Below are positions 38,839 to 46,239 of a stretch of DNA of 64,000 bases, piece by piece. The stretch covers positions 96,001 to 160,000 of the forward strand of contig OY843592.1 in NCBI GenBank assembly GCA_963692865.2, written 5' to 3'. The DNA is from a bacterium (lineage in GTDB: Bacteria > UBA8248). The number at the start of each line of letters is the position of its first letter. The stretch's first letter is position 1. The position numbers were made by a program, and so were the translations under genes. The notes beneath the pieces were generated by a model. It did not search any database and was not told the origin of the DNA. It saw only the letters and a program-made list of their open reading frames with translations.

Positions 38839-39210
38839 TCAAACCTCTAAAATTTTCTTGAGGTTCGCCCAAGACCAACGAATCAGTCGACCAGCATTTG
38901 GTACAGGAGTCGGATGAGAATCCTTGTAGCCAATTATCTGGACAATCGGTTTCCGCAACTCACGCGCTATCGCAACTTCTTTTCTCACACCAGAAGCACG
39001 GTGTGTTTTAGTACCTACAAGTACGATTACGATATCTGATCGATTAATTCTACTTTTCGCCTCCCGTTCCCAATTAGCCTGAGGGGCTTCTTCTTTCATC
39101 GACCAATCCGCAGCAGAAAACGGGGATTCAGGAAGTCTAAATTGCCCCGCAAAGAAATGTTTCAATACTTGATCCTCATCAAAATCAAAACTGATAAACG
39201 CTCTTTTCAT
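38839..39210 (-). CDS. TIR-like protein (ThsB/MTH538/DUF1863 type), second
   Basis: RAFISFDFDED, IVLVGTKT, VRKEV (putative catalytic Glu). Confidence 0.85.
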   Translation of the reverse strand: MKRAFISFDFDEDQVLKHFFAGQFRLPESPFSAADWSMKEEAPQANWEREAKSRINRSDIVIVLVGTKTHRASGVRKEVAIARELRKPIVQIIGYKDSHPTPVPNAGRLIRWSWANLKKILEV

Positions 39211-39234
39211 TACCTACACGCTCCATTCTCAAGT

Positions 39235-39735
39235 TCAATTATTCCTACGTATCGAGATTGCTTCTTCAACAGCATTGGCTAGATGTTTTTTAATCCAATT
39301 GTATCGCTCCTGACTGTTACTTCCTGCCGGATTGTAACATTTCACAATTGAAGAAAGTTTCTTGCCAGTTTTGCCATGCTTGATATAGTCAAAGGGATTT
39401 CCCCCTTTGGTTGATACTTTCCCGTCGGCATTTTTCAACCCGTGAATGTGAATGCCCACAACGCCCATTTCATCGTCCCACGCTTTAATAATCTCGTGGT
39501 TGATCCACTTACGTCCTGCCGTGTTTGAGCCTACAAGAACAACCGCACAGGTGCGTCCTTCCATTTGTTCGCCGATCCATTTTTTAATGGCTGTCTCTCC
39601 ACCTTTCTTTACAACTTCCCAAACATTGTCCGTAGCAGGTCGATTACCAACGATTACGCCTATGTTACGAACTGTAGCCACGCGCCAATTATCTGGTTGA
39701 TAGTGAAAACTGTAGAAAACTCTCCTTGTCATCAT
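39235..39735 (-). CDS. TIR-like protein (ThsB/MTH538/DUF1863 type), first
   Basis: RRVFYSFHY..DNWRV, VVLVGSNTAGRKWINHEI, GIHIH. Confidence 0.9.
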   Translation of the reverse strand: MMTRRVFYSFHYQPDNWRVATVRNIGVIVGNRPATDNVWEVVKKGGETAIKKWIGEQMEGRTCAVVLVGSNTAGRKWINHEIIKAWDDEMGVVGIHIHGLKNADGKVSTKGGNPFDYIKHGKTGKKLSSIVKCYNPAGSNSQERYNWIKKHLANAVEEAISIRRNN

Positions 39736-40157
39736 ACACACCTAATAAAGAGGATTGTCAGAAGTACGAGCATTAAAATTAAAAGAAATAAATAAAACCA
39801 GAGGACGGACCAAGACCAAGCAATTTTCCAAACGGAATCGACCGACTTGGCATATGGGCGGTAATCCAGATCAAAGGGAACTATTTCCTTTCCAGCCACG
39901 ATAGCCTCATGGAGTGCTCTATAACATTTTTCTAGGTGAAGATATCGGGTATCCATGAACCAAAAAGCGATGACAGGGATGCAGCCACCCACACCAATTA
40001 GCCAGTGCGGTTCTTCCGATAAACCTGAGAAGGCGAAAATTGCAGTAACCAGCGATACGGTCCAAGTTTTCATTTGGGTGCTATTGCCCGCCATACGGGA
40101 AACAATGGATTGAACCATTTTAAGGTGCTCGATCATCTTATGAGGGTCATTTTTCAT
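39732..40157 (-). CDS. Small multi-TM membrane protein coupled to the TIR genes
   Basis: HLKMVQSIVSRMAGNS..KTW, three hydrophobic segments; ATGA overlap with the first TIR gene. Confidence 0.8.
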   Translation of the reverse strand: MKNDPHKMIEHLKMVQSIVSRMAGNSTQMKTWTVSLVTAIFAFSGLSEEPHWLIGVGGCIPVIAFWFMDTRYLHLEKCYRALHEAIVAGKEIVPFDLDYRPYAKSVDSVWKIAWSWSVLWFYLFLLILMLVLLTILFIRCV

Positions 40158-40314
40158 ATCGTGAAATTACCACATCACTGAGTAACAAGAAAAGTTTTCA
40201 AAGTTCCAACAACACTTCGTTTGGATACAGAATCTCCATCATTACTTACCCCCTAAAACACTCGCACGATTAGAGTCAGCAAGCACACTTTACACCCAAG
40301 TCTGCACGGATGTT

Positions 40315-40420
40315 CTAATGCGAAAGTATCTGATTCAGGAAGAGTTTCGTGCGGTCGGATTGGGGGTTGTTGAAGAATTCTTCGGGTTCGTTCCGCTCGA
40401 CGACCCGGCCCTCGTCCATG
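40315..40420 (-). pseudogene. Duplicated 3' end (34 codons) of the amino-acid ABC ATPase gene
   Basis: 90/106 nt identical (hand count) to 44351-44456; MDEGRVVERNEPEEFF...LNQILSH. Confidence 0.85.
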
Positions 40421-40426
40421 CCCGGC

Positions 40427-40843
40427 TCACCGGCAATGCGTTGCCTCCAGGAAAGCGCGCAGACGCCGCGCCAAGGCATCCTCATCGACAAGTTCACACT
40501 CCCACAGCGTAAGCGAATTCCAGCCGGCGGTTGCAAGTTCGTCCAGTTGCTTCGCATGACGCTCGACGTTGCGCGCAATCTTCGATTCCCAGTATTCGGC
40601 GTTGGTTTTCGGCAGGCGGTTCCCGCGCTTGCACGAATGACCGTGCCAAAAGCACCCGTTCACGAAGATGACCCTCCGGCGCGGGCCGAACACGATATCG
40701 GGCTTGCCCGGCAAATCCTTCCTGTGCAGCCGGTAACGATACCCCATGCGATGCAATATCCGCCGAACTTTCATCTCGGGTTTGGTGTCGCGGCCCTTGA
40801 CCGCCCGCATCGTCCGGCTGCGTTGCTCGGAAGTCATCGTCAT
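40427..40843 (-). CDS. vsr: Very-short-patch repair endonuclease
   Basis: RSRTMRAVKGRDTKPE, LPGKPDI, FVNGCFWHGH, WECE. Confidence 0.95.
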   Translation of the reverse strand: MTMTSEQRSRTMRAVKGRDTKPEMKVRRILHRMGYRYRLHRKDLPGKPDIVFGPRRRVIFVNGCFWHGHSCKRGNRLPKTNAEYWESKIARNVERHAKQLDELATAGWNSLTLWECELVDEDALARRLRAFLEATHCR

Positions 40844-41697
40844 GACCGGCGAATGGGCGTTGGTTTCGACTCTTGTTGCAATTGTCCGCTGCGGTCGATG
40901 CGCGTCGTTCGAACGGTTTCAGCGCCTCGATGGGCCACGCTGAAACCAACGTAGTTGATTTCTTCCGGCTCGCAACGGAAGCAGTCGTTAAAGGCCTGAA
41001 GTATTTGAACATCAGAAAGCGCTTGCGGCCGGGGGTCGGGATTATTGCGGGGACTCGGAATCGTTGACGGCAAGACGTAAAGGCAAGGCGGCGGCAAACT
41101 GAACGGCCCCACAACGGTTTTTCGGGAAGAGCCGGTCAGCAACTTCGGACACGGCCTCCCTATGGCGCCGCATATCATGTCCCAGATGACAATCCCGTCG
41201 ATGCGTTGATTTCGTGAGATAATCTCGGCGCTCAGTCGAGTATGAATGCCGGACCAGGCATTGTGGCGAGGGTCGGCGCCCACGTTCGTGCAGACGCTCC
41301 AGATTATAAACTCATCCGCATGCGCGGGCCGTTCGAAAATGTTGGTGTTGTTGCCGTCGAGACACCCTTTCAACTCGATAACGGCCGTGCGGCCTGAATT
41401 GAGCCTTACGGCATAGTCATGGCGATTGGCTTCTCCCGCAGACTCCCATTTGCCGATGAAGCCCCCATCCCGCATATGGTCGAGAATATGCTTAACGAAC
41501 TCCTTCTTCTCGCGCATGGTAGCCGAGAATTGCCCGCGAATGCGTTCAATCGCGCCCCGGAACAAGCCGCTGCCGTAAAATTCCGTTTCATCAAAACCGT
41601 GATCGCCAAGCGTATGAGCCTCGGTTTTGAGAACTTCCGCAAATGCCTCTATTTTCTCCTGAAGATCCGTATTTCGTTCACATGGGATGACAGTCAT
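40840..41697 (-). CDS. Putative PD-(D/E)xK restriction endonuclease
   Basis: HDY...IELK motif; lies between the methylase and vsr with ATGA overlaps. Confidence 0.6.
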   Translation of the reverse strand: MTVIPCERNTDLQEKIEAFAEVLKTEAHTLGDHGFDETEFYGSGLFRGAIERIRGQFSATMREKKEFVKHILDHMRDGGFIGKWESAGEANRHDYAVRLNSGRTAVIELKGCLDGNNTNIFERPAHADEFIIWSVCTNVGADPRHNAWSGIHTRLSAEIISRNQRIDGIVIWDMICGAIGRPCPKLLTGSSRKTVVGPFSLPPPCLYVLPSTIPSPRNNPDPRPQALSDVQILQAFNDCFRCEPEEINYVGFSVAHRGAETVRTTRIDRSGQLQQESKPTPIRRS

Positions 41698-42839
41698 GCG
41701 GCTTCTTGCGCCTTAGGCATATGCAACAAAATTGGTTCTATAATCTCGTTCGCCAAAAAACGCACGACAGGCACGGCGACTCCGTCCCCTGTCAGGTGGT
41801 AGGCCTCGTTATAGTTGTCGGGCAGGATGTAATCATCGGGAAGTCCCATGAGCCTTGCGGTTTCACGGCTCGAAATGAGGCGCGTCCGCACCCTATCGCC
41901 TTCAACAAAAATAACCAGTTGCCTGCTGGAGCCGCCAACCGGAGTCCGCAGGCAACCGGCAATATCGTCGAAACGCACTTCGGCGCGCTGCACTTTGCGG
42001 CCGGACTCGTCTCGCCGCGTACGCTTGTAGATCGTGCCGATTATTCGCCGTCCTTCCCGTTTCGCCGAATGAACTTTATCGAGGTTCACGTCGCTCATCA
42101 TGCCGAGAAGCTTTTGCGTTTCTTCAGGCGCGTGCCAGGAAACGTCTTCGGGATCGTCTTCGACCAGGTCGGAAAATCCGATGCTGCGAGTCGGCGGCGC
42201 AGTGAGACTCCACCATATCCAGTTTTCTTTCAAGTGGATCGGCAATTTGTCGAAAGCGGTCCTCAGCGTGCGGGGATGAAACGTGTCGCTCGGATACTCC
42301 TGAGAAAGCATTTCAGGAACATCAATATCGTCTCTAACCGCAAGGAGCAGAAGCCGGGGTCGCGATTGGGGAAGGAACAACGCGGCATCAATAATCAAAG
42401 CGCCGAATCTATAGTTGCCGGCGTTCAGCGCACTGCAAATCGCCTGAAAATCCTTGCCATCGTGGGAGGTCAAAGTCCCGCGAACATTTTCCAGAACGAT
42501 GACGCCGGGCGCTCTTGACTCGTACGCGAGCTCCATCATCAGACGCCAGAAGGACCAGAAAGCGCTCGAGCGCTCGCCTTTCAAGCCGGCGCCCACTCCG
42601 GCAAGAGACAAGTCCTGACAGGGAAAAGAGGCCCAAACGAGATTGGCGGAATCAATCAGGTCGTTCGATGTTACGTTCCGGATATCATCGCATAGAAGAT
42701 GGCCGGCGCCCCAGTTGAGTCCGTACGTTGCGGCTTTCTTCGGATCAAAGTCGTTCGCGAACAGACATTGCCATTCATCCCCCAGCCCGGCGCGAGCCAT
42801 GCCTGCGCCTGCGAAAAACTCATAGAAACTGCCGATCAT
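41694..42839 (-). CDS. dcm: DNA cytosine-5 methyltransferase
   Basis: FFAGAG, SFPCQDLS, LENV, QSRPR, GDGV. Confidence 0.95.
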   Translation of the reverse strand: MIGSFYEFFAGAGMARAGLGDEWQCLFANDFDPKKAATYGLNWGAGHLLCDDIRNVTSNDLIDSANLVWASFPCQDLSLAGVGAGLKGERSSAFWSFWRLMMELAYESRAPGVIVLENVRGTLTSHDGKDFQAICSALNAGNYRFGALIIDAALFLPQSRPRLLLLAVRDDIDVPEMLSQEYPSDTFHPRTLRTAFDKLPIHLKENWIWWSLTAPPTRSIGFSDLVEDDPEDVSWHAPEETQKLLGMMSDVNLDKVHSAKREGRRIIGTIYKRTRRDESGRKVQRAEVRFDDIAGCLRTPVGGSSRQLVIFVEGDRVRTRLISSRETARLMGLPDDYILPDNYNEAYHLTGDGVAVPVVRFLANEIIEPILLHMPKAQEAA

Positions 42840-43134
42840 GCAGTCCACCTATGCTTTCGGGCGATGGGCAATGTCTAAAATACCGAAGCCTTCGCTTGGG
42901 GTCTTCCCAAGGGTAATATAATTTGCCTTCCTGTGGGAAACAAACGCGACAGCCGAGTCCGCAGTCAATGCGAAGCTACGAGACGCCCTTACCCGCCTGC
43001 TCCGAAGCCTCGTGAACCATCGGACGGAGATATCAGCATCGGCAAACCCTCTGTTATCATCAAGTTCTATCCCAAAAATTACCCAAAAACAAGCACGACG
43101 AATCCTCTACCCTCATGCGAAAATACCCGGCTCG

Positions 43135-43808
43135 GGACGAGGGGGGGGGTGCAGGGGCAGGCCCCCGCGCCTGTCCGAGGCCCCTGCGCCTGCGCTTCGT
43201 TTCGCAGAAGCCGGCAGGCGGCGATTCCTCTCGCATGGGTCGGAATCGACCTCCCTCTTCGTTCGGAACCGACTCCTCGGGAGCGCCCTACACATATCAT
43301 GCGACCCGGCCTTTTTCGCCTCTCCGGCAACGGGCCGCATGATATGCGGGACAACCCCTCTTCGGGGTCGTCCTGCTACACCGCCGCTTGAACGAGAAGG
43401 GGGGGTTCGCGGCAATCCAACCCGCCTCATCCTGCGCACACCTACCCCACCGCCTCATCCTGAGCAGCGGCGAAGCCGCGTATCGAAGGACGGCGCTCTC
43501 GCCACGACGCGGGGGGTCGGCTCCCCCCGTCCCCCTCGACAGGCCCAGGACAGGCTTTCAATACGCCCCTCGCAAGCTCGGGGCTGCTCGGGACGAGGTT
43601 GGGGATTTGGCAGGGACAGGCCTCCGCGCCTGTCCGATGTCGTGGTGAATATGATCGACGGGCGGGCGCAGGGGCGCTTCGTGAAGCGCCCGTTTCTCCT
43701 CCGGGGAGGGCCGTTCGCGAACCGCCCCTACGGCCCTCTGATCCGAATGACGACGCGCCCTCCTCGCCCTTCGATACGCGGCTTCGCCGCTGCTCAGGAC
43801 GAGGCGAG
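43135..43808. repeat. Mosaic of REP-like palindromes
   Basis: CCTCATCCTGAGCAGCGGCGAAGCCGCGTATCGAAGG at about 43453 with an inverted copy at about 43768-43805; GCAGGG(G/A)CAGGCC...GCCTGTCCGA at about 43151 and 43610. Confidence 0.7.
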
Positions 43809-43920
43809 GCGGCGCCGCGCATTTCCCCGCATTTCGCGTCATGGGCGCGGCGGCGGCGCGTGGCAGGATCGCCCTCCGATACCGTGGGCCGTCCGTTTCA
43901 GAAAAACGGGCGAATTCCCG

Positions 43921-43970
43921 TAAAATAAGATAAATTCGGATAAAATTGGATAAATAAAGATAAATTTTTT
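43921..43970. repeat. Five tandem 10-bp AT-rich units
   Basis: TAAAATAAGA TAAATTCGGA TAAAATTGGA TAAATAAAGA TAAATTTTTT. Confidence 0.75.
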
Positions 43971-44350
43971 GAGGCCAAGTATCTGAAAATAAAGGCGTTC
44001 AGTCGTTTTCGCGCGAAACGGCGCCCAAGGGGAGGGATCGCGCCGAAAAGGCGTCCGCCCTTTTTTTGACGAAACCGTCCACCCGCCGGCGCGCCTCGTC
44101 AGAGCCGGGAAAATCGGGCCGAAAGCGCGCGCGCAGGCGCCCCGCCCGCGCGGCGAACCCGGCCCGCAAGGACTTTCCCGGCAACCCCCGAGGGGGCGTG
44201 ATTCTTCTCCCTCGTATGCCGGCCGGAACCCCCAAGGAGCGTTTCTTCTCCCTCGCGCGCCGGCCACGACTCGCAAGGGAGGAGCCGTTTCACAAGCGTA
44301 CGTCGATGGAGAAATTCATCCTCTGCCCATGGCGGATTTTTCAACACATC

Positions 44351-45091
44351 CTAATGCGAGAGTATCTGGTTGAGGAAGAGTTTCGTCCTCTCGGACTGGG
44401 GGTGGTAGAAGAACGTCTCGGGGTCGTTCCGCTCGACGATCTGGCCCTCGTCCATGAAGATGACGCAGTGGGCGACCTGGCGCGCGAAGCCCATCTCGTG
44501 GGTGACGACGAGCATCGTCATCCCGGTCTCGGCGAGTTCGACCATCACGTCGAGCACCTCCTTTATCATCTCTGGATCCAGCGCCGAGGTCGGCTCGTCG
44601 AACAGCATGATCTTGGGCCGCATGCACAGCGAGCGCGCAATCGCCACGCGCTGCTGTTGGCCGCCCGAGAGCTGGCCGGGGTATTTCATGGCCTGCTCGG
44701 GAATCTTGACGCGGGTCAGGTATTCCATCGCGAGCTCCTCGGCCTCGGCCTTCGGCGTCTTGCGCACCCAGATGGGCGCGAGCGTGCAGTTCTCCAGAAC
44801 CGTCAGGTGCGGGAAGAGGTTGAACTGCTGGAACACCATGCCGACTTCTCTGCGCACGTTGTCGATCTGCTTGAGGTCGCCCGTCAACTCGATGCCCTCC
44901 ACCACGATGGTGCCCTTCTGGTGTTCCTCCAGGCGGTTGATGCAGCGGATGAGCGTCGATTTGCCCGACCCCGAGGGCCCGCAGATGACGATGCGCTCCC
45001 CCCGGTTGACGGTCAGGTCGATGTCGCGCAGGACGTGGAACTGGCCGAACCACTTGTTCATGCCCTCGATTCGGATAATCGGCTCACTCAT
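44351..45091 (-). CDS. aapP: Amino-acid ABC ATPase (AapP/BztD)
   Basis: [28 protein letters not shown]. Confidence 0.9.
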
Positions 45092-45108
45092 GGGCGCATT
45101 CTCCTCCC

Positions 45109-46239
45109 TCAGGTTCTGTGGCCCGTGTCGAGCTTGCGCTCGAGCCACAGGCTGTAACGCGACATGCTGAAACAGAAGATGAAATAGATGACGCCGGCGA
45201 AGATGTAGGACTCATGCTCCAAGCCCAGCCATTTGGGGTCCGTCACGGCGGAGCGGGCCACGAGCAGGAGATCGAAAAGCCCGATGATCGATACCAGCGC
45301 CGTATCCTTGAAAAGGGCGATGAAGGTGTTGACGATGCCCGGGATCACGATTTTCAAGGCCTGCGGCAGGATGATCAGCTGCATCGACTTCCAGTAGTTC
45401 AAGCCCAGCGCCTGTGCGGCTTCCGTCTGGCCCTTCGGCAGGGCCTGCAGCCCGCCGCGCACGACCTCGGCCATATAGGCGGATGAGAACATGGTGAAGC
45501 CGATCAGGGCGCGCAGCAGTTCGTTGGCGTTCACCCCTTCGGGCGTGAAGAGCGGCAGCACGAAAGACGCCATGAAGAGCACGGTGATGAGCGGCACCGC
45601 GCGCCAAAGCTCGATGAAGGCGATGCAGATGGTGCGCACCACGGGCATCTCAGACCTCCGCCCGAGGGCCAGCAGAACCCCGATCGGCAGGGAGAACAGG
45701 ATGGCGACCGAGGCGAACACGAGCGTGAGCGTCAGGCCGCCCCATTTGTGCGTCGGCACCACTTCCAGGCCGAAAGCGCCGTTGAGCAGGACGTAGGCGA
45801 TGACGGGAAAGCCGAAGACGAGGAAAAGCGCGGCGAAGGTGCGGCCCGGCACCCTGTCGGAGAGCACCGGGAACAAGTTGACGCAGAACAGGATGAAGGT
45901 CAGGTTCACCCGCCAGCGCTCGGCCTCGGGGTAGAAGCCGTAGATGTACTGCCAGAATCGCTTCGGCACCAGAACCCAGCAGGCGCCTTCGATGCCCCGG
46001 CAGTCCTTGTTGGACTCCCCCTCCCAGAGCGAGTCGATGAAAGCCCACTCGAAAATCGGCGGCACGATCGTATAGAGGAGATAAAAGGTAAGCAGCGTGA
46101 GCGCCGTGTTGAGCGGCGAGGAGAACAGGTTCTGCCGCATCCAGCCCAGGACGCCTACGGTCGAGACCGGCGGCGGCGACTGCGGGATGTGCTCAGTGCG
46201 CACGAAGCCGCCGCCCGCGTTTTTGGAGATATCGCTCAT
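45109..46239 (-). CDS. aapM: Amino-acid ABC permease (AapM/BztC)
   Basis: [23 protein letters not shown]. Confidence 0.88.

Follow-up and report, generated by a model that had tools for sequence, protein, structure and literature searches.

In type I Thoeris, a TIR protein of the ThsB type, for which multiple genes may occur, is paired with ThsA, a SIR2-SLOG protein whose SLOG domain binds the signal. In the accessible part of the preprint by Yirmiya et al. (bioRxiv 10.64898/2025.12.03.692087), on which our statements about the recent Thoeris types rest, types V-XI are validated and 29 effector types are predicted. The type V effector ThsF is a three-transmembrane (TM) DUF2270 protein, activated by 3′ cyclic ADP-ribose (3′cADPR) and modelled as a heptameric ring; in type VII the effector, ThsH, belongs to the SLATT proteins and is activated by canonical cADPR. 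Both are small membrane effectors with predicted basic inter-protomer pockets and without a classical sensor domain; in type XI a 'hydrolase effector' from an Actinobacteria scaffold is used. The PDC systems, as presented in the part of the source available (Payne et al., bioRxiv 10.1101/2024.01.29.577857), are a collection of 145 untested candidates for defence against phage, made up of one gene or of several. In the name PDC-M50 the 'M' would stand for multi-gene; the name itself was not found in the literature searched. Here we describe a cassette of three genes, encoding a TM protein and two TIR proteins (TIR-A and TIR-B), located in a stretch of 64,000 nucleotides of a bacterium of the UBA8248 lineage (contig OY843592.1, positions 96,001 to 160,000 of the forward strand), referred to below as the window.

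The cassette is probably a Thoeris-family TIR-signalling anti-phage system of the PDC-M50 type, horizontally acquired, in which the TM protein is the effector. This rests on the integrity of the genes, their family assignments, the linkage of TM and TIR genes, domain fusions, a distribution that is patchy and, in relatives, an insertion site that is empty. A preceding interpretation made from the letters alone (the sequence-only reading) had proposed a Thoeris-like cassette with the TM protein as its sole candidate effector, and this part is maintained. It had also proposed a candidate new TIR-signalling system, and this part has to be abandoned, because the TM/TIR-A pair corresponds to PDC-M50 of the PADLOC database over the full length of both proteins, and is hence already catalogued as a phage defence candidate, and because the system class was validated in 2025 according to the accessible part of the preprint cited above. 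Such a match to a catalogued system is among the outcomes that the sequence-only reading had itself named as speaking against it. The cassette is a further example of a known system class, not a new kind.

The three genes and their products

The minus strand of the window carries three intact open reading frames (ORFs), encoding the three-TM protein of 141 amino acids (aa) (39732..40157), TIR-A (39235..39735, 166 aa) and TIR-B (38839..39210, 123 aa). The GC content is 43% in each of the three genes, against 63.6% in the left flank, 56.4% in the adjoining restriction-modification (R-M) genes and 64% in the genome, in agreement with the low-GC three-gene operon initially described. The TM gene is coupled to the first TIR gene through the ATGA motif that had been noticed: in GTATGATGA the TGA stop codon of the TM gene (39732-39734) shares bases with an ATG at 39733-39735. 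Because of this overlap the most likely start of TIR-A is 39735, which yields the 166-aa protein; the ORF as listed by the program spans 39235-39741 (168 aa, GTG start). The TIR-B start, preceded by GGAG, lies 24 nt 3′ of the TIR-A stop. The low-GC non-coding stretch 5′ of the TM gene (40158..40251, minus strand), at whose end homology to the spacer of relatives resumes (40252), is the presumed promoter region; a promoter and terminator scan gave nothing above shuffled background, and no convincing sigma-70 match was found on the minus strand upstream of the operon.

TIR-A, the presumed phage sensor and signal synthase, belongs to the ThsB type as judged by Pfam, PADLOC and Protein Data Bank (PDB) matches. 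It matches PF08937 (ThsB_TIR) at 4.7e-25 with 88.3 bits, above the cut-off of 21.2 bits, which TIR-B also exceeds (3.1e-11, 44.0 bits). The two TIRs of the cassette account for the only two ThsB_TIR matches in the whole genome. Among the PADLOC models, TIR-A matches ThsB (PDLC00433, 7.1e-67) and, over its full length (residues 4-166), PDC-M50B (PDLC04688, 2.2e-63); TIR-B matches ThsB at 1.2e-07 and PDC-M50B weakly at 3.1e-05. Solved ThsB-type TIR chains match TIR-A at 3.9e-36 (8wcf_A), 2.2e-22 (9b7d) and 2.5e-22 (6lhy); a literature search for structure 8WCF returned no paper. TIR-B, taken as an accessory second TIR on the basis of PF08937, the PADLOC ThsB model and the alignment, is a stripped-down TIR from which the insert of about 35 residues of the ThsB type is missing; the second, divergent TIR of the sequence-only reading is confirmed. 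An alignment of four TIR-B-type and five TIR-A-type sequences contains invariant columns at S7, F8, D13, V63, G66, T69 and E78 (TIR-B numbering). Glu78 of TIR-B (VRKE; codon 38977..38979, minus strand) falls in the same column as Glu81 of TIR-A (WINHE; codon 39493..39495, minus strand), and both align with the Glu of the YEI motif of ThsB chains 6lhy and 9b7d, which we take to be the catalytic residue of ThsB. The presumed catalytic glutamate is hence kept in both TIRs, as proposed.

The TM protein, a presumed membrane effector, has three hydrophobic segments in a Kyte-Doolittle scan (residues 32-48, 50-70 and 112-141), and its AlphaFold2 (AF2) model (pLDDT 85, pTM 0.72) consists of three helices (5-46, 52-87 and 116-140); the prediction of about three TM segments was therefore right. 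Its N-terminus is net positive and the TM1-TM2 loop is acidic, and because of this distribution of charge the sequence suggests a topology with the N-terminus in the cytoplasm and the C-terminus outside. All four PDC-M50A models of PADLOC match the protein; the best of them (PDLC04686, 1.5e-32, 110.7 bits) aligns with residues 3-135 of 141 through positions 3-131 of the 134 in the profile. With a profile built from 29 close homologues, the family comprises 4441 representative proteins at E≤1e-3 and 2613 at E≤1e-10, and nearly all of the 150 members listed measure 110-170 aa. Arg21 is invariant across the family, and L12, Q16, K30, W66, D69, L73, E76, R80 and L82 are conserved in at least 90% of it; most of these residues belong to helices, predicted to be cytoplasmic, on the flanks of TM1 and TM2. 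In a protein atlas the nearest neighbours are unnamed clusters (0.96-0.97), and the nearest named ones, DUF3278-like (0.93) and 8xMP (0.88), are leads only. Of the papers listed by a literature search for 8xMP, none deals with the Pfam family of that name as far as titles and abstracts tell.

With regard to PDC-M50, the window copy thus agrees in that its TM protein matches the A models and TIR-A matches B over the full length, with both genes adjacent on the same strand. It differs in having a third gene, that of the minimal TIR-B.

Linkage of the TM and TIR genes and fusions of the TM module

In genome contigs, a TIR-A homologue lies directly 3′ of the TM relative in 7/8 loci, and the gene order and tight coupling of the window pair are those of these seven loci. 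The hosts are Thermodesulfobacteriota, Gamma- and Alphaproteobacteria and one Bathyarchaeota metagenome-assembled genome (MAG), with identities of 59-75% for the bacterial hosts and of 36% for the archaeal one. Together with these eight loci, the best 80 of 321 confirmed loci from a metagenome scan gave a set of 88, duplicates included, 80 of which had a usable downstream ORF and 8 had none. The ORF directly downstream of the TM gene matched PF08937 in 59/80 and TIR_2 in 12/80, two counts that may overlap; among upstream ORFs of at least 60 aa, PF08937 was found in 15/62 and TIR_2 in 13/62. Clustering the TM proteins of the 88 loci at 95% identity left 70 clusters, 63 of them evaluable. With our own iterated TIR hidden Markov model (HMM), which may drift, a downstream TIR was present in 50 of these 63 clusters and a TIR on either side in 53, and at least two TIR-like ORFs were found in 12 of the 70. 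The co-occurrence count that had been called for therefore speaks for the linkage, and TM homologues, which might have turned out to be rare beside TIR genes, show instead a strongly conserved adjacency. DUF2188 proteins (9.8e-20) are encoded by two of these 62 upstream ORFs; the accessible part of the preprint by Yirmiya et al. (bioRxiv 10.64898/2025.12.03.692087) names the domain as a putative effector of Thoeris.

Short TIR-B-type homologues with 58-75% identity adjoin the TM gene in three other loci. In the first (L003) the three-gene order is identical to that of the window cassette and the TIR-B-type protein has 75% identity; in the second (L030) the short TIR lies upstream of the TM gene and is the sole TIR found adjoining it; in the third (L077) the short TIR is downstream and another TIR upstream. 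A plasmid of Priestia megaterium carries the order Dcm-TM-TIR-TIR. We thus regard the three-gene form as a recurring variant of a two-gene core. That two TIRs are found repeatedly is in keeping with a role of extra TIRs as added sensors. It could be argued that TIR-B is rather a regulator, a decoy or a degenerate copy that modulates TIR-A, for instance through mixed assemblies or signal degradation, the functional system being the two-gene PDC-M50 pair. TIR-B is short and devoid of the ThsB insert, it has weak sub-threshold matches to SLOG-type families (STALD 0.0007), and it is absent from 7/8 genome loci and from a locus of the same genus (L095), where only a remnant-like match of 12 residues is seen. 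However, it scores above the PF08937 cut-off, the residues S, F, D, G, T and E that are invariant in the alignment are common to it and TIR-A, its homologues stand directly beside the TM gene in the three loci just described, and in one of these the TIR-B-type gene is the only TIR found there. We thus consider a non-sensor TIR-B improbable, and a second sensor the more probable role of this protein.

The TM module is also found as a part of larger proteins. P0238 (401 aa) and P0393 (430 aa) both carry a SLOG domain (LD_cluster2, about 1e-11) at the N-terminus and the TM module at the C-terminus, the TM part being their sole candidate output. The NCBIfam model 'Thoeris type III ThcA' also matches P0238, though below threshold (45.6 bits, with a cut-off of 110 bits). 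In P0394 and P0395 the TM module is N-terminal and joined to a ThsB TIR. On actinobacterial plasmids it forms the C-terminal half of HIT-domain proteins: a Rathayibacter plasmid (NZ_CP047175.1, 2021-4521; L100) encodes a ThsB TIR, the HIT-TM protein, a second TIR and a 169-aa protein without family match, and residues 164-293 of the HIT protein match PDC-M50A at 5.6e-21 while its HIT part matches the PADLOC model 'ThsC HIT family'. Since the SLOG domain is the one that binds the signal in ThsA (Yirmiya et al., bioRxiv 10.64898/2025.12.03.692087, accessible part) and the TM module is fused to SLOG, the TM module can be read, on sequence grounds, as a module for membrane output in TIR and nucleotide signalling.

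The fusions bear as well on a scheme in which the roles would be reversed, the membrane protein being a sensor or anchor that responds to disturbance of the membrane by phage entry or lysis proteins and activates the TIRs by contact, and the TIRs being NAD+-depleting effectors with no diffusible signal. Such a scheme would account for the presence of the TM module and a ThsB TIR in single polypeptides and for a TM protein devoid of a known ligand-binding domain, and bacterial TIRs do act as NADase effectors in other systems, as the accessible part of the same preprint states (bioRxiv 10.64898/2025.12.03.692087). Nevertheless, the TM module is also the C-terminal partner of SLOG and HIT domains, where sensing on behalf of a TIR is impossible; TIR-A falls in the ThsB group, whose characterized members are, in that same part of the preprint (bioRxiv 10.64898/2025.12.03.692087), signal synthases; and where a single TM gene is accompanied by several different TIRs, many sensors acting on one effector would account for it. 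The reversed scheme is hence unlikely, although somewhat less so than a TIR-B without a sensor function, and we retain the TM protein as the probable effector.

Genomic setting and mobility

The cassette is flanked on one side by a thiamine pyrophosphate (TPP) enzyme gene and on the other by genes for a Vsr mismatch endonuclease (40427-40843; PF03852 6.6e-30), a type II restriction enzyme (40840-41697; PADLOC REase_II 1.3e-141, no Pfam match) and a C5 cytosine methylase, Dcm (41694-42848; PF00145 3.9e-44), all three on the minus strand. ORFs and Pfam and PADLOC scans of the neighbours revealed no SIR2, SLOG, Macro or caspase gene near the cassette, in accordance with the absence of such effectors reported earlier. 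A low-GC insert beside Vsr, restriction enzyme and Dcm genes fits the setting of a defence island.

The cassette is accessory and mobile, and it has been acquired horizontally. The TM gene is present in 5/51 genomes of the phylum and 4/23 of the genus, the window genome counted. Four of the nine same-genus loci compared contain both flanks (L105, L108, L109 and L110), and in them the TPP-enzyme gene and an ABC ATPase gene are convergent and 0.4-1.1 kb apart, against 5.6 kb in the window. In a further relative (L103) homology covers 40252-40418; therefore the TIR cassette lies in the original spacer, and the R-M cassette was inserted separately, into the ABC gene at its end. An origin of the operon and the R-M cassette as one mobile unit was considered and ruled out, since the homology to the spacer of relatives and to the 3′ end of the ABC gene at 40252-40420 separates them. 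The copies nearest to the cassette, with 59-75% protein identity, come from MAGs that belong to unrelated phyla, which points to recent horizontal exchange. A scan of viral contigs gave one relative among 56 pattern matches, thus no sign of a family that is mainly phage-borne.

A function other than defence, either as an addiction module of the toxin-antitoxin kind or as an inert remnant carried along with the neighbouring R-M cassette, has to be weighed here, since orphan TM genes without a TIR do exist (L096). But the three ORFs are intact and 59-75% identity has been kept across distant phyla, the synteny shows that the cassette and the R-M unit are separate insertions, and the gene pair is met again on plasmids and next to defence genes of unrelated kinds. 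We regard this explanation as very improbable, the least favoured of those considered, and keep to a probable anti-phage cassette.

Two other genomes of the genus deserve description. In one (G022; L095, 972-1938, minus strand) the TM and TIR-A pair, with 64% and 73% identity, occupies a different chromosomal site and is convergent with a DNA methylase gene fused to an HNH domain; the match of 12 residues to the start of TIR-B (E 0.004), placed after TIR-A, may be a remnant of a lost TIR-B. The other (G028; L096, 952-1380, plus strand) contains the TM homologue, with 65% identity, and no TIR gene; a convergent ORF (410 aa, family unknown) overlaps the 3′ end of this TM gene, which may be an orphan or a disrupted copy.

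The R-M cassette as a whole (40427-42848, minus strand) has 4-nt gene overlaps and a GC content of 56%. It is bracketed by a direct repeat of 106 nt, 85% identical (40315-40420 and 44351-44456), which corresponds to the 3′ end of the ABC ATPase gene (44351-45148), and the arrangement looks like an insertion into the gene end that brought a replacement 3′ end. The intervening 1.5 kb or so (42849-44350) contain no convincing gene but have repeats, namely an inverted repeat of 42 nt (43451-43492 and 43765-43806, 95% complementary), a direct repeat of 28 nt (43151 and 43610) and a tandem 41-mer (44195-44276). Possible readings are REP-like elements, or a scar left by the mobile element with which the R-M genes arrived.

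The TM protein as a probable effector and the known Thoeris types

In the mechanism we propose, infection would be detected by TIR-A, with TIR-B probably serving as a second sensor, and the TIRs would convert NAD+ into a signal derived from ADP-ribose. The 141-aa TM protein would be the effector, likely assembled in the inner membrane as a homo-oligomer. Binding of the signal would take place at the basic cytoplasmic residues conserved in the family, R21, K30 and R80, near D69 and E76, and it would open or disrupt the membrane, leading to growth arrest or death before the phage is released. Signal production, the ligand site, oligomerization and membrane damage are thus parts of what we infer, as is defence itself, and the formation of a pore by the TM protein, already put forward in the sequence-only reading, would be one form of that damage. 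The three basic residues are suggestive at most of a ligand pocket. A prediction of a four-copy complex of the TM protein, run without controls, scored 0.13 and 0.16 with the mark at 0.42 and weighs neither way. A reading as TIR sensors with a membrane effector is well supported by the conserved context and the domain fusions, and it has precedent in types V and VII, which, in the accessible part of the preprint, use small membrane effectors (bioRxiv 10.64898/2025.12.03.692087).

Several observations count against this interpretation. No experimental test of the TM family was found in the literature searched, and the PDC candidates are described as untested in the part of the source available. 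In the linkage analysis, 21/80 downstream ORFs do not match PF08937, and the TM-TIR fusions fit direct protein contact and a diffusible signal equally. The TM protein has no match in Pfam or NCBIfam (no NCBIfam model matches any of the three cassette proteins), and it contains no recognizable ligand-binding domain, which had been correctly anticipated. Fold searches with its model gave generic helical hairpins: Foldseek found nothing at E≤0.001 in the PDB, and the wide VIA-align search reached at best a Z of 10.5, against ESCRT-III, coiled coils and other long helical hairpins, a value within the range typical for helical models and uninformative. A search of PDB sequences with the TM-protein profile returned solely a plexin (E 0.5). 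Regarding the type V effector, the TM protein of the window has no match to PF10028 (DUF2270) at E≤1. The family is touched weakly by 9/78 TM-family members, with a best E of 0.0013 and always below the cut-off (P0391, for example, scores 16.6 bits with a cut-off of 25 bits). Alignment of the TM family to a DUF2270 alignment with hhalign gave a probability of 3.8% and an E of 0.011 over 57 columns, the DUF2270 set being a narrow one of 16 sequences (53-80% identity), none TIR-linked. The PDC-M50A models match 0/4 true DUF2270 proteins, versus 4/4 stand-alone members of the TM family.

By the sequence tests run, then, the TM family appears not to be the same as Pfam DUF2270. A distant relationship between the two is possible as far as sequence comparison goes. 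PF10028 is the Pfam family most often touched by the 78 TM-family members (9), followed by 8xMP (6) and DUF3278 (4); the columns aligned by hhalign are the equivalent region of N-terminal helix, TM1 and TM2 in both families, and local HMM cross-searches between them reach 4-8 bits. In all of these weak matches the register is one and the same, running from the N-terminal helix across TM1 and TM2. None of the 120 close homologues of the TM protein listed carries PF10028 in the precomputed Pfam column. In the NCBI annotation the true proteins are named 'DUF2270 domain-containing protein', and the TM homologues are mostly 'hypothetical protein', some being HIT- or TIR-domain proteins. A TIR-linked PF10028 gene was not found: the family occurs in 0/51 genomes of the phylum and in 3/400 gammaproteobacterial genomes, in none of them beside a TIR, and a plasmid tblastn search for DUF2270 returns alphaproteobacterial and haloarchaeal genes only. 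The preprint of Yirmiya et al. was the only literature on DUF2270 found.

A more far-reaching proposal can be made, which we offer tentatively and regard as rather doubtful. The PDC-M50A module, being neither ThsF/DUF2270 nor SLATT, would be a distinct, very widespread, minimal membrane effector (4441 representative clusters) that reads a TIR product through about 70 cytoplasmic residues without a known ligand-binding fold, the signal possibly being unlike those of types I-XI. The same module would serve again, as the part that kills, in proteins where it is fused to SLOG, HIT or TIR, and the window form would be the two-sensor version of a Thoeris type not yet validated.

The cassette is a clean, intact example of a TIR signalling enzyme combined with a tiny membrane protein, and it comes from a poorly sampled phylum, represented by only 51 species genomes in the collection searched. 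The more useful outcome concerns the TM family, which is large, tightly TIR-linked, C-terminal in SLOG and HIT proteins and N-terminal in TIR fusions. The family would lend itself to the question of how a nucleotide signal may be read by a protein of some 140 aa that has no classical sensor domain.

Compared with type I Thoeris, in which ThsA and ThsB are paired, the window locus has in common the ThsB-type TIR with its conserved Glu and the multiplicity of thsB genes, and TIR-A matches the solved Bacillus cereus ThsB chains at about 2e-22; it differs in the lack of a SIR2-SLOG gene. With the HIT-plus-TM effectors of actinobacterial plasmids it shares the TM module, which is C-terminal in them; on the Rathayibacter plasmid the TIR upstream resembles PDC-M50B/ThsB, and another TIR comes after; unlike those effectors, the window TM protein has no enzyme domain. 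Like type VII, it combines a TIR with a small membrane-spanning effector, and the TM module of the window is also found fused to SLOG elsewhere, as the name SLATT (SMODS- and SLOG-associating) would lead one to expect. The window locus differs in that its TM protein matches no SLATT Pfam family at E≤1, and SLATT is absent among the 25 families shown, of 57 matched at that threshold by the 78 TM-family members. With type V the window shares the two-gene core of a TIR and a small three-TM effector with no separate sensor domain, the small three-TM protein encoded next to thsB being a feature of that type. The AF2 models of the window TM protein and of a DUF2270 protein show the same succession of an N-terminal helix with TM1, TM2 with a cytoplasmic helix, and a final TM; the true DUF2270 proteins differ in their length of about 230 aa, with some 60 extra cytoplasmic residues in the AF2 model. 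The general features of Thoeris, a ThsB-type TIR with a conserved Glu and a conserved operon partner able to act as effector, are present. We conclude that the cassette would work like type V Thoeris.

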